64,000 nt of DNA from a virus (lineage: Duplodnaviria > Heunggongvirae > Uroviricota > Caudoviricetes), in IMG/VR virus record IMGVR_UViG_2576861193_000004, positions 42,259-106,258 of that record; one strand, given 5' to 3'. Numbering within the stretch: position 1 is the stretch's first letter; each line of letters starts with the position of its first letter. This document shows, in pieces, positions 16,454 through 42,837 of the stretch. The translations under genes were made by a program, and so were the position numbers. Below the pieces are notes generated by a model. The model searched no databases, was not told the origin of the DNA, and saw nothing but the letters and a program-made list of their open reading frames with translations.

Positions 16454-16492
16454 AGATCCCTCTAAAACACACAGAGCGCGTCCATGCGCTCT

Positions 16493-16508
16493 AAAACAAC
16501 TTGTTTAC
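16493..16508. promoter_or_regulatory. motif-1 palindrome (AAACAAnTTGTTT)
   Basis: aaaacaacttgtttac upstream of TerS-like gene. Confidence 0.45.
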
Positions 16509-16518
16509 TGCATCTGCT

Positions 16519-16534
16519 AACCAACTTGTTTTCT
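16519..16534. promoter_or_regulatory. motif-1 palindrome
   Basis: aaccaacttgttttct. Confidence 0.45.
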
Positions 16535-19905: not shown

Positions 19906-21465
19906 ATGACTGTTCGGATTGTATCTAACGCAGTAAATGCACTTATTTCTGGCGCAGATGACAAGGTAAAGCAACTGGTGCAACAGATGTTGAGCTACGA
20001 AGTCGAGACTGGCGACTGGAAGGGCACAAGCACGATGTTCAACTGGAGTAAAAACTCGTTCCCTGCTGGCTTTGCCAAGCCTGTAGCGGCGAACTTGAAC
20101 AAGGCGGGCATCAAATGTGTTCATATCCGCAAAGACAAAGCCCCGGCGCTTGGAAAGCCAAATCCGGCGGTCAACCCATTCCCATACAATCCTGATTATG
20201 CATATCAGGATCAGACTGTGGAAACACTGGTTCGAGAGGGAATGATGATTGCGCAGATCGCTACTGGTGGCGGGAAATCTAATGTTGCCTGCAAAGCAGC
20301 TGCACGTATCGGTCGAATGACATTATTTTTAACAACCCGCTCTGTTCTGATGTTTCAGATGGCCGAAAACTTCCAGAGATCCATCGACTACCGCGCCGAA
20401 AATGGCGAACCGTGGTTAAAAGACCAAAAGGTTGGAGTCATTGGCTCGGGTGAGTTCCAGGTATCACGACATATCAACGTCGCTACAGTTCAAACTCTGG
20501 CAAGTTTCCTTGAAGAACCACCACGCGATGCAACTCCAGATAAGAAGAGCTACCACCTCAAACGTCGGGACTTGGTGAAACGCTTCCTTTCAAGTGTGTC
20601 TCTTCTTATTCTGGAAGAGGCGCATGAGTCTTCAGGCTCTAATTTCTATGACATCGCCAGATTATGTGCGAACGCAGACTATCGCCTGGCGCTTACGGCA
20701 ACGCCGTTCATGAAGGATTCTACGGAAGCCAACATGCGTCTGATGGCAGTGGCCGGGCGAATTGAAATAAAAGTCACGGAAAAGTATCTGATTGATAGAG
20801 GCATTCTGGCAAAGCCATACTTCCTTTATCATAAAGTTGCCTACAAGCCGGACGAGGCCAGAATCAAGGCAGAACTTGCCAACAAACACCTCAATTTTAG
20901 AGTAGGTATGAGCACTGCCTACCAAAAGGCTTATCAGTTGGGGATCGTGTATAATTTGGGACGTAATGAGGCCATTGTTCGCGAAGCATTGCTCTATAAG
21001 CAACATTCTCTCAATTGTATGACTCTGGTTCGTCTTAAACGCCACGGGCAAATCCTGATGGAAATGATGAAAGAGTCCGGCCTTAGAGTTGACTTCATTT
21101 ATGGGGAATCGAACCAGTCGACAAGGCAAGCAAAGCTGAACAGTTTAGCGTCTGGCGACATAGATGTTTTAATAGGCTCGACTATTCTGGATGTCGGTGT
21201 TGATGTGCCAAACGTTGGTGCGGTCATTCTTGCTGGTGGTGGGAAAGCAGAAGTTGAAATGAGACAACGTGTCGGTCGTGGCTTACGAGCCAAGAAGAAT
21301 CAGGCAAACGTGTGTTTTGTCACTGATTTCATTGACATTAGCAACAAATACCTGTTGTCTCACTCTTATGAGCGAAAACACATCATCGACACCACACCTG
21401 GCTTTGCAGAAGGTGTATTGCCTGTTGATGGCGCATTCGATTTTGGAGTTCTGAAACGAGATTAG
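19906..21465 (+). CDS. SF2 DEAD/DEAH-box DNA helicase
   Basis: 519 aa; Walker A ATGGGKS, DEAH-like LEEAHE, TATP motif, QRVGRGLR motif VI; RBS aggaaagagg upstream. Confidence 0.75.
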   Translation: MTVRIVSNAVNALISGADDKVKQLVQQMLSYEVETGDWKGTSTMFNWSKNSFPAGFAKPVAANLNKAGIKCVHIRKDKAPALGKPNPAVNPFPYNPDYAYQDQTVETLVREGMMIAQIATGGGKSNVACKAAARIGRMTLFLTTRSVLMFQMAENFQRSIDYRAENGEPWLKDQKVGVIGSGEFQVSRHINVATVQTLASFLEEPPRDATPDKKSYHLKRRDLVKRFLSSVSLLILEEAHESSGSNFYDIARLCANADYRLALTATPFMKDSTEANMRLMAVAGRIEIKVTEKYLIDRGILAKPYFLYHKVAYKPDEARIKAELANKHLNFRVGMSTAYQKAYQLGIVYNLGRNEAIVREALLYKQHSLNCMTLVRLKRHGQILMEMMKESGLRVDFIYGESNQSTRQAKLNSLASGDIDVLIGSTILDVGVDVPNVGAVILAGGGKAEVEMRQRVGRGLRAKKNQANVCFVTDFIDISNKYLLSHSYERKHIIDTTPGFAEGVLPVDGAFDFGVLKRD

Positions 21466-21467
21466 TT

Positions 21468-21746
21468 ATGAGCGAAAAGAAAACAACTTATTGCCAAGTG
21501 GCATTGTCTGATAAGGCCAATGAAAAACTTGGAAAATTTCAAATAAAACTCAAAGAGAAAAAAATCAAGATGTCTAAGGCTGAAGTTATCAATGCCATTC
21601 TGGAGACGATGACTATGGCTGAATTTGACAAAGTCACATCTGCCGTTGGGGTTTCCGCTAAGACGCGTGAGAAAATCATGCGCATCTATGAGAACTCCAA
21701 TATGACAAAAAAAGATCTAGAGGAAATACTGAGCAGGTTGCCGTAA
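21468..21746 (+). CDS. hypothetical small protein
   Basis: 92 aa ORF starting 3 nt after helicase stop. Confidence 0.3.
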   Translation: MSEKKTTYCQVALSDKANEKLGKFQIKLKEKKIKMSKAEVINAILETMTMAEFDKVTSAVGVSAKTREKIMRIYENSNMTKKDLEEILSRLP

Positions 21747-21811
21747 CATTTCATATTTACCCCCTATCTACTAATTCTATGATGTGCTCACTTGTTAGAA
21801 AGGAGCACATC

Positions 21812-22378
21812 ATGAGTTGGTTAAAAGAATTATCATTTGTTGACACCACTGGCGCTAAGAAAAATCATTCTTTCTGGAAAGTCAGCGATCCTTCTGATTT
21901 TCTTGTTGGTGCTAATGCTGCTTTTGAATTGCTTAACTTTTATCAACGTTATCCTGAAATGAAACACAGTCCACTCCTGTACAGAATAACAAACGATATG
22001 AATAGGTCTGGTTTATTATCAAGTGAGTCAGCGAAAGGCTTTTTTAGCAAAATTACGCCACACATATCATTCGATTCAGCAAACGAAATTGATTATCTAC
22101 CCACGAAACCTCAAGAACAATTATCTGTACCACCTGAGAAAAAAGAAAGACGAATTTCCAGCATTGAAAATATATCGAAAGAGCTTCGCACAACAACGTT
22201 GAGGCTGCTGAACTTTCTTACGCTACTTAATTGGATAGATGATCAAACATTGATTCCATCAACCGATGCGTTGGATAACAGAGTCCTTAGGCTGAACAAA
22301 AAATCGCAATTTGGTTTTGTGTTCACCAAAAAAGGTGAAGATTTAATCAAAAGAAAATATAGATTATTGAATGATTAA
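21812..22378 (+). CDS. hypothetical protein
   Basis: Start set at MSWLKELSF (ATG 21812) preceded by GGAG; ORF track start 21779 would lie inside an inverted repeat. Confidence 0.3.
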   Translation: MSWLKELSFVDTTGAKKNHSFWKVSDPSDFLVGANAAFELLNFYQRYPEMKHSPLLYRITNDMNRSGLLSSESAKGFFSKITPHISFDSANEIDYLPTKPQEQLSVPPEKKERRISSIENISKELRTTTLRLLNFLTLLNWIDDQTLIPSTDALDNRVLRLNKKSQFGFVFTKKGEDLIKRKYRLLND

Positions 22379-22523
22379 TAGTCTACATGCAGGTGTATGA
22401 GAGCACCTGCATGTGACACTCATCACATTTTTTGAAGCACACACCTCCGGCTGAAAAAATTTCTTGATTGGCTGAACGATATTTGTAGGCTTTTCAATTG
22501 ATAACTAAGGTCGGATACTGTAG

Positions 22524-23012
22524 ATGAGTATTTCTATAAACAAAATAATTAACTCTTTACGACATAAAATATCACATGGAAAAGATGTTCTTTTTAAAGA
22601 AAAATATTATCTATTCAACTTAGAGCCGTACAAATGTACAAAATTTTATATCACTCGGAACCGTAAATATTCAGTTTCAATCACAAAAGACATGAAGAAA
22701 ATCTCTTCAGAAGAGTACTTCATATCACATATTTATATCTACCCATTTAAATTAGAACCATTAAATATAATTCTTCCTACAATAAAAGGGGTTGAACTTG
22801 AAGGTTATACTTTAAGCTCTAACTTTAATGATATGGGTGTACAAAAACCAGGGACAAGGTCATACTACGCCTACAAAGTAAAATGCAATAACTACAACGC
22901 ACTTAACATGCTAATCAGCAAACTTGAAACGGAGATAGTCGAAGGAAATCTAAATGATGATCATGAAAAATTAGAACAAATAGAAAAACTTAGAAAGTGT
23001 GATGTTAAATAA
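22524..23012 (+). CDS. hypothetical protein (AT-rich, Lys/Tyr/Asn-rich)
   Basis: 162 aa; first gene of translationally coupled trio; lower GC than flanks. Confidence 0.3.
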   Translation: MSISINKIINSLRHKISHGKDVLFKEKYYLFNLEPYKCTKFYITRNRKYSVSITKDMKKISSEEYFISHIYIYPFKLEPLNIILPTIKGVELEGYTLSSNFNDMGVQKPGTRSYYAYKVKCNNYNALNMLISKLETEIVEGNLNDDHEKLEQIEKLRKCDVK

Positions 23013-23627
23013 TTGGATTATCATGATATGAAAATGAAACTTTCGTTACTCCTTGCTTGTATATACCTCCCGGCGTTTCCCGCCAACGCATTATCAGATT
23101 TCGTCTCTGACATGCAAAAAACGTACAGCATGTTTACCTCCGAAGACGTAGTAGAATACAAATCACGAGGTCTGAATCAGCCAGTTTGGTTCAGATTCTC
23201 AGACAACGCAGAAGAAACAATACTTAATGGAGGAAAAGAAAGATTACGGTTGCAAATTAACGGGACCGCTGTACCAGAAAACGTTAATGTAAGCTCTGAC
23301 GAAGCCATGAAGCCATCTGGAATTGTTTTAGAAGTTCAAGACGGCACACTTTACTGTGATGAAATGGCTACAACAGGTTGCCAAGTAAACATTAGGGTTG
23401 GCAATGAAGAGCCTATCGTTACTTACGCCAAGGCTGAAGGGAATACAAGTGGAAAGGTATTGTTTATCGATGAAAATATCTCAAAACGTATCGTTCGTGA
23501 CATACAGAAAACAGCTAACTCTAAATCCGTCGATAAAAAAATCTATGTTGAGGTTCCCTTCTTTGTCGTTGGTAACAAAGAATTTAAATTTGGGTTGCTG
23601 AAAACACCTCTAAGAGTATCAGAATGA
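23013..23627 (+). CDS. hypothetical secreted protein (Sec signal peptide)
   Basis: N-terminus MKMKLSLLLACIYLPAFPANA with AxA cleavage-like site; start abuts previous stop. Confidence 0.35.
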   Translation: MDYHDMKMKLSLLLACIYLPAFPANALSDFVSDMQKTYSMFTSEDVVEYKSRGLNQPVWFRFSDNAEETILNGGKERLRLQINGTAVPENVNVSSDEAMKPSGIVLEVQDGTLYCDEMATTGCQVNIRVGNEEPIVTYAKAEGNTSGKVLFIDENISKRIVRDIQKTANSKSVDKKIYVEVPFFVVGNKEFKFGLLKTPLRVSE

Positions 23628-24148
23628 GAACATTGGACATCACCTACGGCATACCGGCTGAAGTCTGGCCGCGAGACTACGAACATGCTGAGAACATACT
23701 TATGTTCTGGCGGAAGAACAACATTCCTGTAAGAGTCACGCTTGAAGACGGTCAGGTGTTTTGCATGTACGTTCAGGGGACAATGCCTTCACGCAATAAG
23801 CTAGATTTATGCCCGATTCCATATGATAAAGAAAATCGTATAAGACTCCCACTTGAGCGCATTAGCACAATTGAATCAGGTGTAATCGATGGCATTGCTC
23901 GCGAGTTCAAAGGTAGGCTAACAATACATCCAGACTATGTTGACAATCAGCCATCACGCCGTGACTTTTTTGCGATATGTCGCAAGGCTTATCAAAACGA
24001 CCAATCTATAAGGGTCTACATGACAGACGGTCGTGAAATAGAAGGGGTGTCAAGAGGCGTTGATGCTTGCCAGGTCACTCTTAAGTTAGAAGACGGCAGA
24101 AAAATACTTGTTTTCTTCGATTGGGTTGAACGAATCCTTCCATTTTAA
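23624..24148 (+). CDS. hypothetical protein
   Basis: 174 aa; 4-nt overlap with upstream gene; followed by hairpin terminator. Confidence 0.3.
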   Translation: MRTLDITYGIPAEVWPRDYEHAENILMFWRKNNIPVRVTLEDGQVFCMYVQGTMPSRNKLDLCPIPYDKENRIRLPLERISTIESGVIDGIAREFKGRLTIHPDYVDNQPSRRDFFAICRKAYQNDQSIRVYMTDGREIEGVSRGVDACQVTLKLEDGRKILVFFDWVERILPF

Positions 24149-24160
24149 ATCTATAAGGGT

Positions 24161-24190
24161 AATAACCGGCTAAGTCCGGTTATTATTTTA
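24161..24190 (+). terminator. rho-independent terminator after accessory operon
   Basis: aataaccgg-ctaagt-ccggttatt perfect 9-bp stem followed by atttta. Confidence 0.5.
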
Positions 24191-24341
24191 CATGCCATTC
24201 ATTTAAAACTCTTTCAATGCCACCCCGTATAAATATATAAGGTTAAAGGCCCGAATTGATTATTTATTTAGGGAACACCTTCGACGATCTCGCTTTTATT
24301 TCTAGGACTTTCATCCCTGCAGAAAATTTAAAAAAAAACAC

Positions 24342-24370
24342 TTGCAATCTTTTTTCACGTATTGATAATT
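24342..24370 (+). promoter_or_regulatory. sigma70-like promoter for gene 24444-25094
   Basis: TTGCAA (24342-24347), 17-nt spacer, ATAATT (24365-24370); about 70 nt 5' UTR then AAGGA-ATG. Confidence 0.4.
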
Positions 24371-24443
24371 GAACTCGTCGAAAGCGAGCTGGCTAACGAC
24401 AGTAAAAATAAATTCATTTTAATTTTTCGTAAGGATGTCCATC

Positions 24444-25094
24444 ATGGCTAACATTATCATTTCTAAAAAGTCCATCATTGAAGCTGCTGCCATTGTATCC
24501 GACGAGCTGCGCGAAAAAGCAGATCTGGCAACTCAAACATATAACGAACATTATAAAAATGGTACGCACACAAAAGCAGACAAAGCAAACATGCAAGCTG
24601 CGACCACTAAACTTGCTTACTTCATCAACAACGTTGTGAACGCAGTAGAAGACGAAAAATTATGCTCTGTTTTCTACTATGCGATTAAAGCAAGCAAACA
24701 AGCGCCAGAAGTATTTTTCCGTGATGCAATGACTAATAGTTATTCTCTGGAAAAACTGGTTTATCTGGTTAAATCAATTAAATCTGGTAAATGCGTTTAC
24801 TCCATCGCTGATATGTCTGGATCTCGTGTATTCGCTTTAATCGATATGATTAACGACGAGATCGACACGTTCACCAATGGCGCTGTTTTCGATTTAATGA
24901 ATGAAGCTAAAAAAGCGTGCGAAATTAAATTGGACGCTGGCTATACTCAAGCCAACCAGTTGATCAATCTTTGCGAACGTCTTGGACTTGTTGAGAAAGT
25001 CAAAGGAATGGGAAGCGCAAAAGCTGGTACGCAGCAATATCGCTTTATTAAAAATGATTTCTATAACTATCTGGCTGATGCTTTCAAAGCGTAA
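24444..25094 (+). CDS. hypothetical protein (stand-alone, own promoter and terminator)
   Basis: Start set at MANIIISKK with RBS AAGGA; 217 aa; no family recognised. Confidence 0.35.
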   Translation: MANIIISKKSIIEAAAIVSDELREKADLATQTYNEHYKNGTHTKADKANMQAATTKLAYFINNVVNAVEDEKLCSVFYYAIKASKQAPEVFFRDAMTNSYSLEKLVYLVKSIKSGKCVYSIADMSGSRVFALIDMINDEIDTFTNGAVFDLMNEAKKACEIKLDAGYTQANQLINLCERLGLVEKVKGMGSAKAGTQQYRFIKNDFYNYLADAFKA

Positions 25095-25107
25095 TTAATG
25101 GAATCTT

Positions 25108-25128
25108 GCGCCCACTATGGGCGCTTTT
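25108..25128 (+). terminator. rho-independent terminator (copy 1 of duplicated hairpin)
   Basis: gcgcccactatgggcgc + tttt. Confidence 0.6.
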
Positions 25129-25141
25129 AAGGAGCTTAATC

Positions 25142-25372
25142 ATGTTTATTCTTATCGCTGGCGTTAACGTGCGCAATGAATATTTTGTTAATCGCATCGC
25201 TGGGATCGCTGGTTACGCTGGGCGCGCAGTCGAGTTCATAAATGAAACAACGCGAAGAATTGACTTATTGAACGACCAGGAGCGAAAAAAAGCAGACGTG
25301 AATGACGCTGATATATTTTTAATGTTGAAAGCGTTTGTAGAAATGGGATTCAAAATTAGTTTACACAAATAA
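25142..25372 (+). CDS. hypothetical small protein
   Basis: 76 aa from ATG 25142 with RBS aaggag; flanked by identical hairpins. Confidence 0.25.
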   Translation: MFILIAGVNVRNEYFVNRIAGIAGYAGRAVEFINETTRRIDLLNDQERKKADVNDADIFLMLKAFVEMGFKISLHK

Positions 25373-25378
25373 AATCGA

Positions 25379-25401
25379 GCGCCCACTATGGGCGCTTTTT
25401 T
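25379..25401 (+). terminator. rho-independent terminator (copy 2 of duplicated hairpin)
   Basis: gcgcccactatgggcgc + tttttt; identical 21-bp unit to copy 1. Confidence 0.6.
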
Positions 25402-25860
25402 CGTTTCCAATACTCCCACCATAACGCGCCATCATTGGCGCGTTTTTTATTGTCTTTAACTCGCTCCAACAACATAAAAATAAGCACCAAAATAACGCCA
25501 TAGACGCGCTTTTATATCCTTGTCAGTACATACCCATTACTTAACACATTAACGCGCTTAAAACGCGTTATATTGCGCTATAGAGTATGGTTAATCATTG
25601 GCTTTTAGTCTTGCTATGTGATCCGCGTTTATTTGTCGGCGCGGATCGGCTCTTTGTGTTGTTTTGTATCCGCTCGCGTATTATGTGCGCGTGATTTTTC
25701 ACATAATCACACCACTTAATCACATATGTGATTACGCTACGAAAGAAATCTGGATGTCTCAGGCGACGAAAGTCATCATAATTTTCCCCGCTCACCTGTC
25801 CGACAACCGCTGGTTGGATTCCACCAGCTTCCCGATGTTTTTTCTACATAAAGGCGAATG

Positions 25861-25981
25861 CAGCCGTTTCCCGAAAAAATCCTGGCCGTTTCCCGTCGGC
25901 TCATGAATGCGTTCCTCGCCGTTTCTGAAAATTTCCCTGCGGCAGCTGGTGGCTATAGAGAAAGGGCCGTTTCTGGCCCTC
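25861..25981 (+). repeat. iteron-like direct repeat array (4 copies, GCCGTTTC core)
   Basis: cagccgtttcccgaaaaaa / tggccgtttcccgtcgg / tcgccgtttctgaaaat / gggccgtttctggccc at roughly 21-27 bp spacing. Confidence 0.5.
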
Positions 25982-25988
25982 TTCTCAG

Positions 25989-26471
25989 TTACACGCCATC
26001 AAGGATGTGGATGCGGTTGCTTGCGTATACATTCAGCATAAAGTTAGCGCAAAACAGTTTCCATGTATCAACGCCAGCGGTATACGTAATGTTTTTGCAT
26101 TTAATTGCATTGTTGGCGATCCGCATCCCCTGCGATACTGCTTCATCGTCGGAAAATTTGAACGACGATTGAGTTTTAATCCAGACAGAAATCTGCGTAG
26201 CGAACTCAATCAGCTTGGACTGGCAGAATCGCCCGGAGCGCACCGGAAAGACGAACGTTCCGAATCCAGAATTTACCACATACGCTTTCTCAAATACCCG
26301 CGAGTAACGACGATTGCCAATGATGTCGCGTGCAATAATGCATTTTTCTTGTGCTGACAGTTCTACCGTCTCATTGTCGCGCCATGCACCAAGTACTCGT
26401 TTTTCAATGTCAGAGAACGTTACAGCGATATTGCCATGTGCGGGTGCGTTTACAGTAGCGATAAAATTCAT
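25989..26471 (-). CDS. hypothetical protein
   Basis: 160 aa; motif-1 palindrome 20 bp upstream of start. Confidence 0.3.
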   Translation of the reverse strand: MNFIATVNAPAHGNIAVTFSDIEKRVLGAWRDNETVELSAQEKCIIARDIIGNRRYSRVFEKAYVVNSGFGTFVFPVRSGRFCQSKLIEFATQISVWIKTQSSFKFSDDEAVSQGMRIANNAIKCKNITYTAGVDTWKLFCANFMLNVYASNRIHILDGV

Positions 26472-26490
26472 GATTAATTCCTTATCGTAA

Positions 26491-26508
26491 ATAACAAATT
26501 GTTTTCTT
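26491..26508. promoter_or_regulatory. motif-1 palindrome
   Basis: ataacaaattgttttctt, 20 bp upstream of start at 26471. Confidence 0.5.
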
Positions 26509-26821
26509 GTTGGTGTTAATTATCGTTGTACGAATAAGGCGTCAAAGTGGAAAGTTGCGGTAGCCGGACGGGAACAGGTGGGTTTGTCGGTTGCCTGGAG
26601 GTAAGAGGTTGGTGTTTTTAGCCTGCGGGAAACAGGATGGTCATTTAAGGCCACCAATGCTGATGGCCTTAATAATTATCGCCCTATTACGCTAAGGATC
26701 TTTTCCTCAACTGATTTGTTGTTGCGACTAAACTGCCTTGCGTATCTGATGACAGAAGAGGCGTTTTGCTTTCTGACCAATTCGACTCTTTCCTTCAGGG
26801 TTTTCTTGAAATCGCCCATAT

Positions 26822-27196
26822 TTACCACCAGGCGCAGAAGGTCAGTCTGTTATTGTGAAAGTCGTGGTTCCTGATCAGGTCTTCCACAAGTTTTTTCAGC
26901 TTATCCACGTCATGCCAGTAACCTTCGTCGTACTCCTGACTGCCGAAGAAAAAACCTTCCCGAGTAGGCAAGTACTCTTCGCAATTGCTTTCGTTTATGT
27001 GCATCAAATGAGCTTTCAGAAGACAAATGTCATTCATCGTTAATTCTAAAAGCTCACAATTTTCGACTTCACCTACGTTGCGCTCCATCCACCCAACGAG
27101 CGCATTGAACTTACGGAAGTAAGCAACCTGCTTTCTGGATGCCTCGTTATTCAGATCGTTTTTAGGCTGTGTCTCGATATAGATATCAAGTCCCAT
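26822..27196 (-). CDS. hypothetical acidic protein
   Basis: Start set at MGLDIYIE with RBS AAGGAAACC; motif-1 palindrome upstream; possible 46-aa coupled ORF downstream (about 26684-26821). Confidence 0.3.
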   Translation of the reverse strand: MGLDIYIETQPKNDLNNEASRKQVAYFRKFNALVGWMERNVGEVENCELLELTMNDICLLKAHLMHINESNCEEYLPTREGFFFGSQEYDEGYWHDVDKLKKLVEDLIRNHDFHNNRLTFCAWW

Positions 27197-27252
27197 GATG
27201 GTTTCCTTATTAAGTTGCTTCAGTGAAATCATTTTCACAAATCAGATAAGGC

Positions 27253-27268
27253 AGAAAACAAATTGTTA
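27253..27268. promoter_or_regulatory. motif-1 palindrome
   Basis: agaaaacaaattgtta. Confidence 0.5.
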
Positions 27269-27313
27269 TCGGGCATAATAAAATGGCGCGGTTTACGCGC
27301 CATTTAAAGAGGA

Positions 27314-27709
27314 TTAAGCGAATACGCTTTCAGGGATTAAGGTGTCGGCAGGAATGCCAGAGGTAATGCGCAGACCGTACTGGCCAATCCAGGTGGTGCT
27401 GGTGTTCAGGCTGGAGGCGAATACGGTGTTAACCATATTCATCATGGTTTCAAACACCTCTTCATCAACCTGGCGGAAGTAGTTCTCGATTTTCAGCAGC
27501 AGCGGGTCAGTTGCATCGAGAATGGACTGGTATTGAGTCGCGTACTCGCCGCCGGAGGCATCACCTTTACGCACGATCGTACTGGCCTGGACTTCGGCAC
27601 CAGTTTCGGTGTTGTACGTAACAACGGTAATTTTTGCCACATTCTTACCTTCGGCGGTTTCAGAGGCATAGTAAACATCAACTGTCAGTTTTTCGCGTTT
27701 AACGGTCAT
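27314..27709 (-). CDS. hypothetical protein
   Basis: Start set at MTVKREKL with RBS GGAGAG; motif-2 palindrome upstream. Confidence 0.3.
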   Translation of the reverse strand: MTVKREKLTVDVYYASETAEGKNVAKITVVTYNTETGAEVQASTIVRKGDASGGEYATQYQSILDATDPLLLKIENYFRQVDEEVFETMMNMVNTVFASSLNTSTTWIGQYGLRITSGIPADTLIPESVFA

Positions 27710-27775
27710 TTCACTCTCCGTAGTGTCTTGGTTATTTTTATATTCTATGATCGTAAGTATGTACTTACAATACAA

Positions 27776-27805
27776 AAAAGCCCCGTAAGGATGGCGGGGC
27801 TGTCG
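27776..27805 (-). terminator. rho-independent terminator
   Basis: Minus strand agccccgccatccttacggggct followed by tttttg. Confidence 0.5.
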
Positions 27806-27835
27806 TACGGTCGACTAATTACCACTTGCACATTA

Positions 27836-28147
27836 TCAGGCTATTGCCATCACTGATGCTCTCTGAATCTCTTGCTGGGCCACGCGGTTAACTTCCATCA
27901 AAGCCAGTTCGAGCTGATGTTCCGGCCACATTCTTTGAAATGCCACCCAGCCTTTTCCACGCTGGCGACGAACATTCATTACATAACGAGTAAAGGTGTT
28001 TTTATCGAAAGACACCGCTGTTTCACGGAACAGACGAATAGAGGTTCCATTGGCAACGATGTCCAGCAAAGTTAATTGAGCAACCAGCGCAGGCTTCTCT
28101 TTTCTCTTCTGGTCTTTGTCCAGACCAAGAACCAATGATTTTTTCAT
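27836..28147 (-). CDS. hypothetical basic protein
   Basis: Start set at MKKSLVLGL; motif-1 palindrome immediately upstream. Confidence 0.3.
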   Translation of the reverse strand: MKKSLVLGLDKDQKRKEKPALVAQLTLLDIVANGTSIRLFRETAVSFDKNTFTRYVMNVRRQRGKGWVAFQRMWPEHQLELALMEVNRVAQQEIQRASVMAIA

Positions 28148-28157
28148 CACAACTCCG

Positions 28158-28174
28158 TAAACAACTTGTTTTCT
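28158..28174. promoter_or_regulatory. motif-1 palindrome
   Basis: taaacaacttgttttct preceded by caactccg. Confidence 0.5.
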
Positions 28175-28300
28175 CAATGGCGTAAATAATACCAGTAAGA
28201 AAACGGCTACAAAGCATATTGATCAGGTGCATGAGCGATATGCAGGTTCTTCCCTGCGGCTATAGAGAAATTAAGCCAGCAATGCTGGCTTTGGTTGGGG

Positions 28301-28630
28301 TTACTCGAATACTTCAAGAAACTCCTGAACGTCCCAATGCTGGACGAGGTGAAGATAGACCTTAGAAATCACGTCATTTTCGCTATCGCATGTGAAGTAG
28401 TACTTCTGGCTGCGGTTGTATGTGTCCACACAAAATTCGCTCATATCCATAAAGTCAGCATCTTCACCCATGTCGCAAATCATCAAAGCAGGTGCGTCAT
28501 CACGAGTCATCAGCTCCAGCACCCATCTTGAATTAATCAGAGTGGAAGACCAACCTTCCAGCTCATAGAACTGGTCAAACTCTTTTTGAGTCAATTTCTT
28601 GATTTGGTTGATGTCGATATTTGCAAACAT
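28301..28630 (-). CDS. hypothetical small acidic protein
   Basis: Start set at MFANIDINQ with RBS AAGGA; Asp/Glu-rich; motif-1 palindrome in 5' UTR. Confidence 0.3.
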   Translation of the reverse strand: MFANIDINQIKKLTQKEFDQFYELEGWSSTLINSRWVLELMTRDDAPALMICDMGEDADFMDMSEFCVDTYNRSQKYYFTCDSENDVISKVYLHLVQHWDVQEFLEVFE

Positions 28631-28642
28631 AAAGCAATCCTT

Positions 28643-28658
28643 AAACAACATGTTTTCT
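28643..28658. promoter_or_regulatory. motif-1 palindrome
   Basis: aaacaacatgttttct in 5' UTR of 28301-28630. Confidence 0.5.
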
Positions 28659-28991
28659 TGATGGTGTTATTATCGCAATAACGCACAGGCGAAAAAGGAT
28701 TTTATTCCGGTGAATGTGGTTTTGGCAGTGAGTTTTCAGGTTCAGTACCGAGTACACTTTTTACATTATTCTGATTTAGTGGCCGAAGGTGGCTGGTGGG
28801 CAGAATAATCATCTCCCCGAAAACCTACTGAAATCGATTGTGACCCGCTGACTGTCTGGCACAATTACGCTGTAGTTGGGCATTCAGAGGGAATCCAGCG
28901 GTAAGTAAGTTCGCCTGCACGTGAGCGCCTCTCTTCTTCCCGCACATTACAGGTGGGTAGCCGCAACTCTCCCTATCGCTATACCGGTACG

Positions 28992-29129
28992 CCGCCGTTC
29001 CTGAACCGGCATCGAGCCTTTTCCCGAAATCCACACAGGCAACTCGACCGTTTCCCTGAAAACCTCCAGCCGTTCCCCGAAGGCAACCCAGCCGTTTCTG
29101 TAGCGGGATGCAGCCTTTTCCCTGTATGG
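28992..29129 (+). repeat. iteron-like direct repeat array (6 copies, GCC(G/T)TT(T)CC core)
   Basis: cgccgttcctgaa / gagccttttcccgaaat / cgaccgtttccctgaaaac / cagccgttccccgaagg / cagccgtttctgtagc / cagccttttccctgtat at about 22 bp spacing; same family as array at 25861-25981. Confidence 0.5.
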
Positions 29130-29229
29130 ACCTAAGGCTGACCGTAGGGGTGTTACGGGGGATAAAATCAGGAGTTGATTAAATACGAAAAAGGAGGCGA
29201 CACCCCTCCTTCCCTCCCCACTTATACAT

Positions 29230-29995
29230 ACCTGTCTTGTTCGCTATACATGTTGTGTTTTCTTCGTGTTTTATCTGTCTCAACCTCTCTATAGGCGTTA
29301 ATGCTCACTCCTTCCAGAATGTTCTATACGGCGACTATTTCTGTTGGTGAATTGGGTGTGTTGTTTTCTCTGTCGGTGTATGTGGTTTCGTTCGTTTTGC
29401 GGTGGTTCTTCTATGGGGTGTTCTCGTCGTTTTGGTGATTGTTCTTCTCCGTGTATGGAGTAATGGCAGGTGGGCGATTCCTTTCGTTATTGTGTTTGAG
29501 TTGTTTGTCTGGAGTGTGAAAGGCTTTTGTAGTTATTCGTGTATTGGGTAATGGCGTTTCCCGTGATTGTTATGTTTCGTGTCTTTTGGGATTGAGAGAA
29601 ACCTTGCGGTTACAGGCTTCGTTGGGGTTTCAGTGATTCTGGTGTTTCTTCGCTGTTTGGGTAATGGCGTGTCGTGGGTATCGCGCGTATGAATGTTTTC
29701 GGATTGCCTGTGAAAGTTAGGTTGGTTGTCCGGTAGCCTGGGGAGAAGAGGTGGGTCTTTTCGGTAGCCTGCCATAAAGAGGTTGGTTGTTTTGGGGAAT
29801 GGCATGTGTGTTATTTAGTTGTTTTGTTATGCCTGAAAATAAGTTGTTTATATGGTTGTGTAACGCAACGGGAACGATTTTGAGCGTGTGTTTTTGTTGG
29901 TGGTGTGTTGGGTCGTCTGTGGTGAAAATTGGACGCTGTGGCGCTGTCTGCTGCGTAGAATTACGGGTATAAGAAGTGATGTGTGAATACGTCAA
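29230..29995 (+). other. ORF-free tract with extreme G+T strand bias (C+A-rich on minus strand)
   Basis: Plus strand almost devoid of A and C over about 0.75 kb; only low-complexity ORFs on minus strand; contains CGGTAGCCTG..AGAGGTKGGT motif also present at 26555-26620. Confidence 0.5.
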
Positions 29996-30192
29996 TTTTT
30001 TAGACCAAATCGGGTGAAAGCGTTGACGTTTCGTTGATCTGTTATTCAGTTGTTTTCTTATTGGTATAAACAACGTTAACCTATTGATATTTAAAGGTGT
30101 GATTGCAGGTATGGAAGGAGAGTAGTGGCGATCAACAGATTCTTATAGAAAAGAATCAAATTGTGACCGCCATTATCAATAAGTTGCAACCG

Positions 30193-30762
30193 TTAGTTGT
30201 TCAGATAAACATTTGGAACACGGACGTAGAAGTTCCTGTCGCCGGTAAGTTCCAGAGTAATGTTAATGTCATTACCATTGTCTAGTGTAGCCGTTGCTCT
30301 ATAGAACTTATCCGTCACCTTGTCCTCTATTGTCACCTTCATACATTTTGGTGCAGTCGAACCGTTATTCTCTTTCAGAATAGTTGTCACGAGAGGGCAG
30401 GCTGCTTCTTCAAGAGCAACCTCGTCCTTGTGTGGGATGCCGATGAAGATAATCCAAGCCAGCGACGCAACGATTATGATAAATGGCACTCTGCTGCCTT
30501 TTGTAATAGTCGCGCGCTTCCAGAGATAGACAGGCAGGAGGAATACCCCCCATAGAATTGAAGGTGGTTCACAGCCAGACTCCGATAGAGCCATTCTGTC
30601 AGCTACTAACAAACCGATGGTAGTTACACCCCCAATTATAATAGCGTAATTGGTATACTCTTCCGGCGATACTCCAAAGAAGAAAGGCATGAACGCTAGA
30701 ATCCACGCATAAATGTTATTCAGAGGTTTTGTTTGTTGGTTCTGGGTTTCCATCACATCCAT
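30193..30762 (-). CDS. hypothetical membrane protein (N-terminal TM helices + C-terminal soluble domain)
   Basis: Hydrophobic segments IYAWILAFMPFFFGV, AIIIGGVTTIGLLVA, ILWGVFLLPVYLW, FIIIVASLAWIIFIGI. Confidence 0.35.
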   Translation of the reverse strand: MDVMETQNQQTKPLNNIYAWILAFMPFFFGVSPEEYTNYAIIIGGVTTIGLLVADRMALSESGCEPPSILWGVFLLPVYLWKRATITKGSRVPFIIIVASLAWIIFIGIPHKDEVALEEAACPLVTTILKENNGSTAPKCMKVTIEDKVTDKFYRATATLDNGNDINITLELTGDRNFYVRVPNVYLNN

Positions 30763-30914
30763 TCCATCACATAAAAATCGCGTTTATATATTATCAATTT
30801 TCTCACTTGTATAACCTAAATACGCATCCGTTTATCAATCCACCTTCCACAAACATCAGCTTTAGCTATGAAAAATAACAATCTCAAAGTGAAAACCATT
30901 ATCATAGGAAACGA

Positions 30915-31100
30915 TTAGATGAGATGGTCTAATTCATCATCTATCATTGCTTTAACACTTGAGTCATTAACCCCGTATTGATTTATGAGCCGTTTCAGCT
31001 CCGGTGAAAACTGAAGGTAGATATCGTGAGCGTTTTTCACTGTAGGTTCAACGCCACGCATTTCAAGCGCCTTTAGTAGATATGAGTCTTCTTTAAGCAT
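30915..31100 (-). CDS. hypothetical small protein
   Basis: 61 aa ORF downstream of 31137-31436. Confidence 0.25.
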   Translation of the reverse strand: MLKEDSYLLKALEMRGVEPTVKNAHDIYLQFSPELKRLINQYGVNDSSVKAMIDDELDHLI

Positions 31101-31136
31101 AAATTCTCCGTTATCTAGTATGAAGCGATTGCCGGA

Positions 31137-31436
31137 TTACCATTGCCAGCACTCTAGCCCTTCAACGACCGGTGCACCACAATCAAAATGTACAGAGTCA
31201 AAGCCTACATCAAGTACTTTCTGAATGTTAGCAATCGCGCCTTCGGATATACCATATCGACGCAAGTCATCTTTCCAGACATCATCCTGTAACCCGGCGT
31301 GGACAATACAACCGCCATCAATTTGTGAAACCCAATCCAGCTCATTGCTTGCGATCATGAATCGGCGAGCATCTTCCTCTGATGTATGAGATGAACTGAT
31401 CAATGCCACCTGGTAGGCTTGGGTAATGTTCAACAT
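31137..31436 (-). CDS. hypothetical protein
   Basis: 99 aa; two motif-1 palindromes upstream (31448-31465, 31497-31514). Confidence 0.3.
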   Translation of the reverse strand: MLNITQAYQVALISSSHTSEEDARRFMIASNELDWVSQIDGGCIVHAGLQDDVWKDDLRRYGISEGAIANIQKVLDVGFDSVHFDCGAPVVEGLECWQW

Positions 31437-31447
31437 TTCAACAACTC

Positions 31448-31465
31448 CGAAACAATTTGTTTTCT
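31448..31465. promoter_or_regulatory. motif-1 palindrome
   Basis: gaaacaatttgttttctt preceded by caactccg. Confidence 0.5.
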
Positions 31466-31496
31466 TATGTGGCTTATTATCTCAATCAACAAAAGG

Positions 31497-31514
31497 TAGA
31501 AAACAAATTGTTTT
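31497..31514. promoter_or_regulatory. motif-1 palindrome
   Basis: agaaaacaaattgtttta; last phage-type signal before metG terminator. Confidence 0.5.
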
Positions 31515-31549
31515 AGGGTTTGTTAAAGTCAGAAGGGGTTGTGTCTATA

Positions 31550-31580
31550 TGAAAATGCCCAGCGTGTTGCCGGGCATTGC
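31550..31580 (-). terminator. putative terminator downstream of metG
   Basis: aatgccc-N11-gggcatt 7-bp stem just after metG stop, followed on minus strand by ttcatat. Confidence 0.35.
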
Positions 31581-31597
31581 GAACAGAGGTTGTTTAA

Positions 31598-33631
31598 TTA
31601 CTTAACCTGGTGGCCTGGTTTAGCACCAGCATCCGGGCTTAACAGGAAGATATCTTTCCCGCCGGGGCCAGCAGCCATCACCATGCCTTCGGAGATACCG
31701 AAGCGCATTTTACGCGGAGCCAGGTTAGCCACCATAATGGTGTGACGACCAATCAGTGCCTGTGGGTCTGGATAAGCAGAACGGATGCCTGAGAAGACAT
31801 TACGCTTTTCACCACCGAGATCCAGTGTCAGACGCAGCAGTTTGTCAGAACCTTCGACAAACTCCGCGTTTTCAATCAGCGCCACACGCAGGTCAACTTT
31901 GGCGAAGTCGTCAAAGGTGATGGTTTCCTGAATCGGGTCGTCAGCCAGTGGGCCAGTTACCGGTGCAGCTGTGGCTTTCACTTCTTCTTTGGATGCTTCC
32001 ACCAGTGCTTCCACCTGTTTCATATCGATACGGTTATACAGTGCCTTGAACGGATTCACTTTATGGCCCAGCAGCGGTTGCTGGATACCATCCCAGGTCA
32101 GTTCTGTATTCAGGAATGCTTCTGCACGTTCAGTCAGTTTCGGCAGTACCGGTTTCAGGTACGTCATCAGCACGCGGAACAGGTTAATGCCCATAGAGCA
32201 AATCGCCTGCAGGTCGGCATCGCGGCCTTCCTGCTTCGCCACCACCCACGGAGCCTGTTCATCAACATAGCGGTTAGCCAGGTCAGCCAGTGACATGATT
32301 TCACGGATAGCTTTGCCAAATTCGCGGCTTTCCCACGCTTCACCAATCACTTCAGCGGCATCAGTGAAGGTTTTGTACAGTTGCGGGTCAGCCAGTTCGC
32401 TTGCCAGCACGCCGTCAAAACGTTTGTTGATAAAACCTGCATTACGGGAGGCCAGGTTAACCACTTTGTTCACGATATCGGCATTCACGCGCTGAACAAA
32501 ATCTTCCAGGTTGAGATCGATATCATCAATGCGCGAAGAGAGTTTCGCAGTGTAGTAGTAACGCAGGCTGTCGGCGTCAAAATGATTCAGCCAGGTGCTG
32601 GCTTTAATAAAGGTGCCGCGAGACTTGGACATCTTCGCGCCGTTCACCGTCACATAGCCGTGAACAAACAGGTTGGTCGGCTTGCGGAAGTTGCTGCCTT
32701 CCAGCATGGCAGGCCAGAACAGGCTGTGGAAGTAAACGATATCTTTACCGATGAAGTGGTACAGCTCGGCGGTGGAGTCTTTCTTCCAGTATTCGTCGAA
32801 GCTGGTAGTGTCGCCGCGTTTGTCGCACAGATTCTTGAAGGAACCCATGTAGCCAATCGGCGCGTCCAGCCAGACGTAGAAATATTTGCCCGGTGCGTTC
32901 GGAATTTCAAAACCGAAGTACGGCGCATCGCGGGAGATATCCCACTGTTGCAGGCCAGATTCAAACCACTCCTGCATTTTGTTTGCCACCTGCTCCTGCA
33001 ACGCACCGCTGCGGGTCCATGCCTGCAACATTTCGCTGAAAGAGGGCAGATCAAAGAAGAAGTGTTCAGAATCACGCATTACCGGCGTAGCGCCAGAAAC
33101 CACCGATTTCGGCTCGATCAATTCAGTCGGGCTATATGTTGCGCCGCAGACTTCACAGTTATCGCCGTATTGATCTGGCGCTTTACATTTAGGACAGGTG
33201 CCTTTTACAAAACGGTCCGGCAGGAACATGCCTTTTTCCGGGTCGTACAACTGAGAGATAGTGCGGTTTTTAATAAAACCGTTCTCTTTCAGGCGAGTAT
33301 AGATAAGCTCAGACAACTGACGGTTCTCTTCGCTGTGCGTCGAGTGATAGTTGTCATAGCTGATGTTAAAGCCTGCGAAATCAGTCTGGTGTTCCTGACT
33401 CATTTCGCCAATCATCTGCTCCGGTGTGATACCAAGCTGCTGTGCTTTCAGCATGATCGGCGTACCGTGGGCATCGTCGGCACAGATGAAATTAACCTCG
33501 TGGCCGCGCATTCGCTGGTAACGAACCCAGACATCAGCCTGGATGTGCTCCAGCATATGGCCGAGGTGGATTGAGCCGTTAGCGTACGGCAGCGCGCACG
33601 TCACCAGAATTTTCTTCGCGACTTGGGTCAT
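31598..33631 (-). CDS. metG: methionine--tRNA ligase
   Basis: Translation from [26 protein letters not shown] (HIGH motif) through KMSKS to C-terminal tRNA-binding domain ending [10 protein letters not shown]; 677 aa from ATG 33631; ORF track N-terminal extension rejected. Confidence 0.95.
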
Positions 33632-36804: not shown

Positions 36805-38367
36805 ATGAAAATGACAAGTATTCAACAACGTGCAGAGCTTCATCGTCAAATCTGGCAAATTGCTAACGATGTCAGGGGTTCGGTCGATGGATGGGATTTT
36901 AAGCAATACGTTCTGGGCGCACTTTTCTACCGTTTTATCAGCGAAAATTTTTCCAGTTATATTGAAGCCGGTGATGACAGTATCTGTTATGCGAAACTGG
37001 ATGACAGCGTAATTACTGATGACATTAAAGACGATGCCATCAAAACTAAAGGCTACTTCATCTACCCCAGTCAGCTTTTCTGCAACGTAGCTGCGAAAGC
37101 AAATACTAATGACAGACTGAATGCAGATTTAAACAGCATCTTCGTTGCTATCGAAAGTTCTGCTTACGGTTATCCTTCAGAAGCAGACATCAAAGGTTTG
37201 TTTGCTGATTTCGATACCACCAGTAACCGCCTGGGTAACACCGTTAAAGATAAAAATGCCCGCCTGGCTGCGGTTCTGAAAGGGGTTGAAGGGTTAAAAC
37301 TTGGTGACTTCAACGAACATCAGATTGACCTGTTCGGTGATGCCTATGAGTTCCTGATTTCTAACTATGCGGCAAATGCCGGTAAGTCAGGCGGTGAGTT
37401 CTTTACACCGCAGCACGTCTCCAGGCTGATTGCACAACTGGCAATGCATGGCCAGACCCACGTTAACAAAATCTACGACCCGGCAGCGGGTTCCGGCTCA
37501 CTGTTGTTGCAGGCGAAAAAACAGTTTGATAACCACATCATCGAAGAAGGCTTTTTCGGTCAGGAAATCAACCATACGACCTATAACCTGGCGCGTATGA
37601 ACATGTTTTTGCACAATATCAACTACGACAAGTTTGATATCAAGCTGGGTAATACACTGACTGAGCCGCACTTCAGAGATGAAAAACCGTTTGACGCCAT
37701 CGTATCTAACCCACCGTATTCGGTGAAATGGATTGGCAGCGATGACCCGACGCTGATTAACGATGAGCGTTTTGCCCCGGCTGGCGTTCTGGCCCCCAAA
37801 TCCAAAGCTGACTTTGCGTTTGTATTACATGCACTGAACTATCTTTCTGCCAAAGGTCGTGCTGCGATTGTCTGCTTCCCGGGTATTTTTTACCGTGGCG
37901 GCGCGGAGCAGAAAATCCGTCAGTATCTGGTCGATAATAACTATGTCGAAACCGTGATTTCACTGGCACCGAACCTGTTCTTTGGCACCACCATTGCAGT
38001 AAACATTCTGGTGCTGTCTAAACATAAAACGGATACCAACGTTCAGTTTATTGACGCCAGCGAACTGTTCAAAAAAGAGACTAACAACAATATCCTGACC
38101 GATGCCCATATCGAACAGATTATGCAGGTATTTGCCAGCAAGGAAGATGTTGCTCATCTGGCGAAATCTGTCACGTTTGAGACCGTTGTCGCGAATGACT
38201 ATAACCTGTCGGTAAGCAGCTATGTGGAAGCGAAAGATACTCGCGAAATTATCGATATCGCTGAGTTGAATGCAGAACTGAAAACCACGGTCAGCAAAAT
38301 CGACCAGTTGCGTAAAGATATTGATGCGATTGTGGCTGAAATTGAAGGCTGCGAGGTGCAGAAATGA
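36805..38367 (+). CDS. hsdM: Type I restriction-modification methyltransferase subunit
   Basis: 520 aa; AdoMet motif [10 protein letters not shown], catalytic NPPY (VSNPPYS); start of next gene overlaps stop by 4 nt. Confidence 0.95.
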
Positions 38368-39599
38368 GCGAGTTGAGTTATCTGGAAAAATTGCTGGATG
38401 GGGTTGAGGTTGAGTGGTTGCCATTGGGGAAACTAGGTGAATTAGTTCGTGGAAATGGATTGCCTAAGTCTGATTTTACCGAATCTGGGGTTCCTGCCAT
38501 ACACTATGGTCAGATATATACTTTTTACGGATTATCTACTGAAACAACAAAGTCATTTGTTTCCCATGAAACGGCGAAGAAGCTTAAAAAGGTTAACTCT
38601 GGTGATGTTGTTATTACTAACACAAGCGAAAATTTTACTGATGTTGGTAAGGCGCTTGTTTATCTAGGTAAAGAGCAAGCTGTTACTGGTGGCCATGCAA
38701 CTATTTTCAAGCCAAATAGCACTATTATTGGGAAATACTTTGCCTATTTCACGCAAACGGATTCTTTTGCAAATGAGAAAAGGAAATACTCCAAGGGAAC
38801 TAAAGTAATTGATGTGTCTGCATCGGATATGGCGAAAATTATTATCCCTATCCCCTGTCCGGAAAATCCCAAAAAATCCCTTGCTATCCAGTCTGAAATC
38901 GTTCGGATTCTGGACAAATTTACTGCACTTACCGCTGAGCTTACCGCTGAGCTTACCATGCGTAAAAAACAGTACAACTACTATCGCGACCAATTGCTGA
39001 GTTTTAAAGAAGGTGAGGTTGAGTGGAAAACTTTGGGAGAAGTGGCTCAATACTCGAAAACAAGAATTAGTTTCGAACTACTTGATGAAAGGAATTATGT
39101 TGGCGTAGATAATCTGCTGCAAAACAGAGCAGGAAAATCATTATCTAATCATGTACCCACATCAGGTAAATTAACGGAGTTTATACCTAACGATATACTG
39201 ATTGGGAATATCCGCCCATATTTGAAAAAAATTTGGCAAGCAGATTGTATCGGTGGAACAAATGGCGATGTATTGGTTATTCGTTGCATAGATAGCTCAA
39301 TAAATACCAGATATCTATATCAGATTTTGGCAGATGACAAATTCTTTGAATACAACATGCAGCATGCTAAAGGAGCAAAAATGCCGCGTGGCAGTAAAGA
39401 GGATATAATGAAATACCCAATCCCTGTACCGCCACTCACCTTGCAAGCTCGCATTGTCGAAATACTCAACAAATTCGATACCCTGACAAACTCCATCACT
39501 GAAGGTCTTCCGCGTGAAATCGAATTACGCCAGAAACAATACGAATACTACCGTGATTTACTGTTCAGTTTCCCAAAACCTGAAACTGTCAGTAATTAA
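38364..39599 (+). CDS. hsdS: Type I restriction-modification specificity subunit
   Basis: 411 aa; conserved N-terminal, central ([42 protein letters not shown]) and C-terminal ([35 protein letters not shown]) regions separating two variable target-recognition domains. Confidence 0.9.
38931..38954 (+). repeat. tandem 12-bp repeat (ACCGCTGAGCTT x2) encoding TAEL-TAEL in the HsdS central spacer
   Basis: accgctgagctt accgctgagctt read directly in sequence. Confidence 0.8.
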
Positions 39600-39720
39600 T
39601 TGACCATTGCTACCGACCGGGCCACCTTAACACCCGGTCTGTATATAGACTATTTTTTACGCGCCGGAAGTCACTCTTAACGCCCTTCCGGCCCTTGCCA
39701 GGCGGCACAAAGGATGCGCT

Positions 39721-42700: not shown

Positions 42701-42837
42701 AAAATGGCACAGAATTAAACGAGACATTACCAAAACTTAGTCCGTTAAACCCGCAATATAAAACGAAAAAACAGACGGTTTTCCAGAAAATCGTCACGTT
42801 TATTGAAAAGTTCAAAGGAGTAGGTGGGCAGATATAG
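39721..42837 (+). CDS. hsdR: Type I restriction enzyme R subunit
   Basis: 1038 aa; helicase motifs [12 protein letters not shown] ([11 protein letters not shown]), endonuclease-type N-terminal region; 120-bp gap after hsdS with no intervening gene. Confidence 0.95.

Follow-up and report, generated by a model that had tools for sequence, protein, structure and literature searches.

Two acidic proteins from the small-gene cluster of an SSU5-type phage-plasmid: a well-grounded anti-defence lead and a weaker one

The window analysed here was a stretch of 64,000 nucleotides from a Caudoviricetes virus record (IMG/VR record IMGVR_UViG_2576861193_000004, positions 42,259 to 106,258). Two genes on its minus strand, here called A and B, had been proposed in a preliminary description as small, acidic, early proteins acting as DNA mimics or anti-defence factors. 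Gene A (26822–27196) encodes a 124-residue acidic protein of PHROG 7971, and gene B (28301–28630) a 109-residue acidic protein of PHROG 7645. Both open reading frames were found at exactly these coordinates and matched two RefSeq coding sequences (CDS) of a 98%-identical plasmid (L001; 21823–22197 and 23302–23631, offset 4999). The start codons chosen previously were correct, as the MGLD N-terminus of A was invariant in 74 homologues, and an AGGA-type Shine–Dalgarno sequence lay ~7 nt upstream of both starts. The peptide quoted earlier was located in the B product. Overall, the evidence provided a well-grounded lead for A as an anti-defence or establishment factor and a weak lead for B.

Positions 20000–32000 of the window aligned from end to end, at 96–98% identity, with circular E. 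coli plasmids of ~110 kb. These plasmids carried genes for tape measure, major capsid, portal, large terminase and ParB proteins, together with a DEAD-box helicase, metG, apbC, a HumD-like protein and the theta subunit of DNA polymerase III (pol III). The small-gene cluster of the window recurred at 95–98% identity in the Escherichia phages Cyrano (pLF82), CMS-2020a and PhiR41_1, of which Cyrano is described as an SSU5-like phage-plasmid (PMC9928086). From the plasmid matches and the occurrence of the cluster in Cyrano, the element was assigned by sequence to the SSU5/pHCM2-type phage-plasmids of ~110 kb. Within its small-gene cluster, A and B are accessory genes without relation to each other. 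When A, B and eight neighbours were scanned against Pfam, NCBIfam and PHROG, only PHROGs without known function were found. One contig labelled 'MAG: Bacillota bacterium' (metagenome-assembled genome; JAEWTL010000044.1, L015) contained the E. coli SSU5-type cluster at 94–99% protein identity, and it is probably a mis-binned phage-plasmid contig.

Both genes had been described as controlled by a shared motif, motif-1, and this was borne out. The motif (AGAAAACAANTTGTT, with the palindromic core AACAANTTGTT) matched the window at 20 sites when up to 2 mismatches were allowed, where 1.1 sites were expected, and none of 100 shuffles reached 20. The control region of A (27253–27280, minus strand) was composed of a −10-like hexamer TATTAT (27280–27275) and the core AACAATTTGTT (27267–27257) within a motif-1 instance (27253–27267). 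This instance was inverted and was located 57 nt upstream of the start codon, close behind the terminator of the gene before A. The control region of B (28638–28674, minus strand) contained the −10-like hexamer GATAAT (28674–28669), motif-1 in gene orientation 13 nt upstream of the start (AGAAAACATGTTGTT, 28658–28644) and the Shine–Dalgarno sequence AAGGA (28642–28638). When the instances were aligned and read by hand, a common layout was found, in which a −10-like hexamer (GATAAT, TATTAT) was followed after ~10 nt by motif-1 and after a further 12–25 nt, including the AGGA-type Shine–Dalgarno sequence, by the start codon. The same layout, with motif-1 16 nt upstream of the gene, was kept in divergent phage-plasmids whose B homologues were only ~30% identical, and this conservation marks motif-1 out as functional in gene control. 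An operator is suggested by where the motif lies, at or downstream of the probable start of transcription, and it could act on DNA or in the 5′ untranslated region (5′-UTR). A generic promoter and terminator scan was uninformative (5 found, 8.9 expected).

Motif-1 sites were located at 16491–16534, 21478, 24098, 26493, 27253, 28160, 28644, 29834, 31451, 31498, 45025 and 45750. The regulon thus delineated covered at least 12 promoters of the phage-plasmid and was conserved in relatives with ~30% identical proteins. Candidates for its regulator are a FljA-like protein, the basic neighbours g103 and g160 described below, and the Cyrano repressor CYRAN_45. The FljA-like gene (23624–24148, plus strand) encodes a full-length match to PF03614, 'Repressor of phase-1 flagellin' (E 9e-81); the C-terminus gave weak Hfq/LSM-like signals, and the gene was conserved in divergent SSU5-type elements (L085). 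FljA is a repressor that binds an mRNA 5′-UTR, so motif-1, where it lies in 5′-UTRs, could be the RNA operator of the FljA-like protein.

In Cyrano, A corresponds to CYRAN_108 and B to CYRAN_105. RNA-seq of the Cyrano lysogen in LB medium gave a value of 5.7 for A, with a detection floor of 5.0, and 12.8 for B, which was near background (PMC9928086, S1 Table). The background of ~9.6 was derived from the value of 95.75 for the repressor, listed as 10-fold over background (PMC9928086). In macrophage samples, B increased (log2 7.5–7.8; PMC9928086, S1 Table). The near-silence of both genes in the lysogen fits repression in the plasmid state. The search for expression data yielded the Cyrano lysogen and macrophage RNA-seq and no infection time course; the early expression of A and B named in the preliminary description is a supposition that these data do not show. 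Directly downstream of A, a 50-residue open reading frame (26676–26828, minus strand) overlapped the A stop codon. Its 47-residue counterpart in Cyrano, CYRAN_109, was expressed ~6-fold above background in the lysogen while A was silent, which implies an internal promoter or a stable RNA.

Protein A matched PHROG 7971 (function unknown) over its full length in a hidden Markov model (HMM) search (E 4.6e-87, residues 1–124), with no match in Pfam (scanned at E ≤ 1), NCBIfam or PDB sequences. A prefoldin match of the A profile to PDB sequences (E 0.02) was taken as noise. Scanning of all 74 family members against Pfam gave nothing consistent and no DUF1877 match. The family comprised 78 protein clusters, down to 30% identity. 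Homologues were found at 70 loci in genomes and metagenome-assembled genomes assigned to Proteobacteria, Bacillota, Actinomycetota, Bacteroidota, the candidate phyla radiation (CPR), Methanobacteriaceae and Nanoarchaeota, as well as in at least 557 IMG/VR viral contigs and 339 plasmids, mostly ~110-kb phage-plasmids. By its sequence relatives, A belongs to a large, very widespread and unnamed protein family, whose members are carried in bacteria and archaea by mobile elements such as phages, integrative and conjugative elements (ICEs) and plasmids.

The motifs MGLD, YFRKxN and PTxxGFFFGSxxYD were near-invariant in this family. In the alignment of homologues, residues M1, G2, L3, D4, Y26, R28, K29, N31, P77, T78, G81, F82–F84, G85, Y89 and Y93 were near-invariant, and many members had a C-terminal WW. 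With their aromatic and basic residues, these motifs are more in keeping with a specific surface for binding or catalysis than with mimicry of a charge or phosphate pattern.

The AlphaFold model of A had a mean predicted local distance difference test (pLDDT) value of 94.6 and was composed of four strands plus four helices; the segment PTxxGFFFGSxxYD formed an ordered loop. When the model was compared with the PDB using Foldseek, the top match was E. coli YfbM/DUF1877 (probability 0.99; template modelling score TMq 0.58), and the Neisseria DNA mimic DMP12 was found at probability 0.33. The predicted fold of A would thus be compact alpha/beta, of the YfbM/DMP12 type. A and YfbM both start with MG(L/M)xxYF and finish in a strand. 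The YfbM match gave no mechanism for A because the function of YfbM is unknown, and literature searches on YfbM/DUF1877 and on SSU5 anti-restriction returned no functional data.

The gene neighbourhoods of A homologues contributed most to the interpretation. In an E. coli integrase/PilI island, the A homologue was followed by a 63-residue gene and then by ArdA. In a metagenomic ICE with TraG, TraI_2 and integrases, ArdB/KlcA was the very next gene, 11 nt away according to the gene calls, and was itself followed by an MPTase-PolyVal gene. The order in Salmonella diarizonae was DUF932, one gene, the A homologue, an overlapping ArdB and CbeA/CbtA. ArdC was the next gene after the A homologue at two Xenorhabdus loci and in Providencia stuartii, and in Saezia the A homologue came after DUF932. 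Hence, in 6 of the 7 proteobacterial islands examined, the A homologue was located 0–1 gene upstream of ArdA, ArdB/KlcA or ArdC, which are three unrelated anti-restriction families. On a conjugative plasmid of Enterococcus, the genes beside the A homologue had no Pfam match, and Pfam scans of the small-gene cluster in the window revealed no recognisable Ard gene near A.

Protein B matched PHROG 7645 (function unknown) over its full length (E 7.3e-76, residues 1–109). Its family consisted of 10 clusters in a word-indexed search, 9 in an exhaustive HMMER search covering 1.84 billion representatives, and 17 in a profile search. All B homologues with known context were found in SSU5-type phage-plasmids, in a shared cluster with g103, g131, DUF5983, g160, g219 and the FljA-like gene; the context of all 17 clusters therefore gave no functional clue. 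The structural model of B, which was of reasonable confidence (pLDDT 85.4), had a predicted alpha+beta fold, and Foldseek gave no match in the PDB (best probability 0.51, TM 0.30). Invariant positions were mostly hydrophobic core residues, in addition to D44 and D86. A phmmer match to multicystatin among PDB sequences (E 1e-4) was summed from three weak repeats and was rejected as spurious because it vanished with the family profile. B thus remains a lineage-restricted acidic orphan with what the model predicts to be a new fold.

Both proteins had been described as strongly acidic, and their isoelectric points and net charges were calculated. Protein B contained 20.2% Asp and Glu, with a net charge of −14, a pI of 4.21 and −0.13 charge per residue, and ranked 2nd in negative charge per residue among the 50 annotated CDS of a related plasmid. 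Protein A contained 17.7% Asp and Glu, with a net charge of −9, a pI of 4.93 and −0.07 charge per residue, and ranked 6th. A pI below 5 was found for 28% of the CDS on that plasmid and for 36% of its small CDS. From these ranks and this background, the term was true of B and overstated for A: B is clearly acidic and A only mildly to moderately so. Acidity was conserved in the A family (74 sequences, median pI 4.58, net −10). The B homologues retained a net charge of −14 to −15 at 25–36% identity, which suggests that the charge of B is under selection.

From these observations, A would have an anti-defence or establishment role, a reading that stands a little short of an even chance and draws on guilt by association and on the DMP12/YfbM-like fold. 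A and B would each be expressed from their own sigma-70-like promoter followed by the shared, palindromic, operator-like motif-1, and both would be nearly silent while the element persists as a plasmid prophage. The most likely function of A would then be that of an anti-defence or host-takeover factor, active while the element establishes itself or early in infection. A may bind a conserved host or defence protein through an invariant surface formed by the MGLD strand at its N-terminus, the turn with RKxN and the loop with PTxxGFFFGSxxYD, and its negative charge would assist the binding. B, in the same regulon and more acidic, could plausibly be a protein-binding inhibitor. The anti-defence idea of the preliminary description thus found a good candidate in A, through its neighbourhoods and fold, and in B only conserved acidity. 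A more specific version holds that A represents an unrecognised anti-restriction or anti-defence family of bacteria and archaea with a DMP12-like mimic fold, acting with or upstream of ArdA, ArdB and ArdC during establishment of incoming DNA, and that B is a second, SSU5-specific decoy with a new fold. This joint version is unlikely as it stands.

Several results weigh against an anti-defence role. Searches of Pfam, NCBIfam, PHROG and PDB revealed no known anti-defence protein that resembles A or B in sequence, as the preliminary description had itself noted for anti-restriction proteins. When the A-family profile was aligned with the YfbM sequence by hhalign, there was no signal (probability 0.2). 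The six Ard associations were not fully independent, because the ICE loci shared backbone genes (integrase, DUF1281, DUF932). Divergent SSU5-type phage-plasmids kept B without A, so the two proteins do not form a functional pair, and the case for B is one of charge and synteny. Finally, in phage contigs the A homologues adjoined genes for ATP-dependent DNA ligase, dUTPase, helicase and ribonucleotide reductase (RNR), with PolA also nearby; anti-defence genes were not their neighbours there. Both settings, islands and phages, are establishment or early modules, and the phage context is equally compatible with a role of A in DNA metabolism.

That context is the basis of the strongest alternative, in which A is a DNA-metabolism accessory, a small enzyme or a ligand binder, such as a ligase or replication partner or a nucleotide binder, and proximity to Ard genes merely reflects residence in early or establishment modules. 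A triad of an A homologue, a ~100-residue gene without Pfam match and an ATP-dependent DNA ligase was found in five gut-derived phage-like contigs (L021, L024, L025, L032 and L039, from genomes and metagenome-assembled genomes; L010–L012 were also listed), and the A homologue directly abutted the ligase in a 165-kb phage contig. The triad suggests a functional link of the family with nick or end sealing. In addition, residues D4, R28, K29, N31, T78, Y89 and Y93 and the GFFFG loop resemble a pocket or active site, and a family found in bacteria and archaea would suit a universal substrate. However, A had no similarity to any enzyme family, its nearest folds (YfbM, DMP12 and the DapD N-domain) are non-catalytic or of unknown function, and the protein is small and consistently acidic. 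A metabolic role for A is the most probable of the alternatives and, on balance, still improbable.

Somewhat less probable is a reading in which the acidity is incidental, both genes are ordinary phage ORFans of a regulatory, morphogenetic or dispensable kind, and neither takes part in counter-defence. The frequency of acidic small CDS favours such a reading, and the neighbours g131, DUF5983 and g61 were equally acidic; B had no informative homologue, fold match or neighbour, and Pfam scans of the genes of the motif-1 regulon revealed no recognisable anti-defence domain. The repeated position of A beside three unrelated anti-restriction families is nevertheless hard to ascribe to chance, and the constant net charge of the divergent B homologues is at odds with incidental acidity.

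The preliminary description had inferred anti-restriction DNA mimicry, with the HsdR of a neighbouring Type I restriction-modification (R-M) system as the natural target or self-hazard. In an Ocr- or ArdA-like form of this reading, A and/or B would occupy the DNA-binding groove of HsdM2S or HsdR2M2S and so keep incoming phage-plasmid DNA from being restricted. A complete Type I R-M system (hsdM, hsdS, hsdR) was present at 36805–42837 of the window. Its only megablast matches were the phages phi456 and vB_EcoM-673R5 (~90 kb), which shared hsdMSR at 95–96% identity, one Klebsiella phage-plasmid and a Salmonella phage fragment, whereas four E. coli SSU5-type phage records carrying A and B had no megablast match to hsdMSR. 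Since close relatives carry A and B without it, the system is independent, variable cargo, its proximity is not evidence of a functional tie, and the idea of this system as target or self-hazard was rejected. Neither protein matched the family model of Ocr (T7 gp0.3; Pfam at E ≤ 1) or those of ArdA (PF07275), ArdB-KlcA (PF03230) and ArdC (PF08401), and NCBIfam and PDB sequence searches likewise gave no Ocr, ArdA or ArdB match; the Ard families were found in the neighbours of A homologues and not in A itself. Ocr and ArdA structures were absent among the Foldseek matches listed for A and B, and the fold of B matched no known mimic. The charge density of Ocr and ArdA is about −0.2 per residue, so that of A and B is 2–3 times lower. 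Furthermore, the most conserved positions of A are aromatic and basic, not acidic, and for an element with an adjacent ArdA, ArdB or ArdC, a further mimic against Type I enzymes would be of small benefit. Action of the Ocr/ArdA type on Type I enzymes is therefore unsupported for either protein and doubtful as an explanation.

The genes between and beside A and B belong to the same minus-strand cluster. The neighbour g131 (27314–27709) encodes a 131-residue acidic protein (pI 4.5) and was co-conserved with B and g103. The neighbour g103 (27836–28147) encodes a 103-residue basic protein (pI 10.5), was co-conserved with B in the small-gene cluster, and has its own motif-1 promoter (28160–28174). 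On the other side of A, g160 (25989–26471) encodes a 160-residue basic protein (pI 9.2) with a motif-1 promoter (26493–26507) and was conserved in the small-gene cluster. Least probable of all is that B serves as the acidic antagonist or partner of g103 or g160 and tunes the motif-1 regulon, by analogy with DMP19 and NHTF or with anti-repressor systems and not against host defence: B, g103 and g131 co-occurred in every SSU5-type cluster examined, adjacent in most, the charges of B and g103 or g160 are opposite and each gene has its own motif-1 site, but the pairing with g103 is weakened because adjacency was not strict (two genes intervened in L085), and g103 had no Pfam or PDB match and no sign of DNA binding, which leaves the proposal purely inferential.

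Other features were found around the two genes. The terminator scan placed a terminator-like hairpin directly downstream of B (28273–28291, minus strand). Directly upstream of the B promoter, ~1.5 kb (28700–30190) had no annotated CDS in related plasmids and showed a strong strand bias (GC skew +0.24, AT skew −0.35), the minus strand being rich in A and C. It contained dispersed 36–37-nt repeats (D2, D3, D5), two copies of which recurred downstream of A at 26584–26647, and nothing was found there in Rfam or tandem-repeat (TRF) scans. The stretch may represent a non-coding RNA, a region of iterons or an origin, or an array of binding sites. The g61 gene (30915–31100, minus strand) encodes an acidic protein of 61 residues and pI 4.9. 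Its Pfam match to T7 gp5.9, a RecBCD-inhibiting DNA mimic, was weak, partial and below cut-off (PF25708, E 0.005, residues 2–18 only). By sequence g61 is a better DNA-mimic lead than A or B, although a very weak one. The DUF5983 gene (31137–31436, minus strand; E 7.5e-11) had two facing motif-1 sites upstream (31451 and 31498) and was conserved in all SSU5-type clusters examined. In its 73-residue RefSeq form, the product had the most negative charge per residue in the region. Two 88%-identical hairpin copies (25097–25128 and 25368–25399; …GCGCCCACTATGGGCGCTTTT) flanked a 76-residue gene (25142–25372) and look like duplicated terminators around an inserted gene cassette. Second copies of metG and apbC were carried on the plasmid at 31598–34889, beside the HumD-like and pol III theta genes.

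Should restriction or another defence prove to be countered by family A, the anti-defence catalogue would gain a very widespread and so far unannotated family, with invariant motifs open to mutation and natural operon partners in ArdA, ArdB and ArdC. Clinical E. coli and Klebsiella commonly harbour SSU5-type phage-plasmids, and these carry resistance genes; the factors behind their establishment in new hosts are therefore of practical interest. The motif-1 regulon also offers a handle on how these elements switch on accessory genes.

When compared with known systems, A and B resemble Ocr and ArdA in being small, acidic and encoded on mobile elements, and ArdA itself was found one gene from an A homologue. 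They differ in the lack of any sequence match, in the absence of Ocr and ArdA from the fold matches listed, in their much lower charge density and in the strongly conserved non-acidic motifs of A. YfbM (E. coli b2272, PDB code 1ryl), the top structural match of A, is a longer chromosomal protein of 167 residues. DMP12 (Neisseria NMB2123, PDB code 3w1o) is a monomeric DNA mimic of 118 residues and pI 4.39 that binds HU (PMC3643605), and A is likewise small and acidic. However, DMP12 shares 13% identity with A and no sequence-level signal, is a chromosomal protein whereas A is carried on mobile elements, and has His at residue 4 where A has the invariant MGLD, in addition to the RKxN and GFFFG motifs. 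The closest parallel in gene order is with the anti-defence islands that conjugative elements carry in their leading or establishment regions, as A homologues are found in gene strings with ArdA, ArdB/KlcA, ArdC, DUF932 and CbeA/CbtA in E. coli, Salmonella, Xenorhabdus, Providencia and a metagenomic ICE, whereas A of the window is located in a phage-plasmid cluster and A of large phages in modules of replication and nucleotide metabolism.

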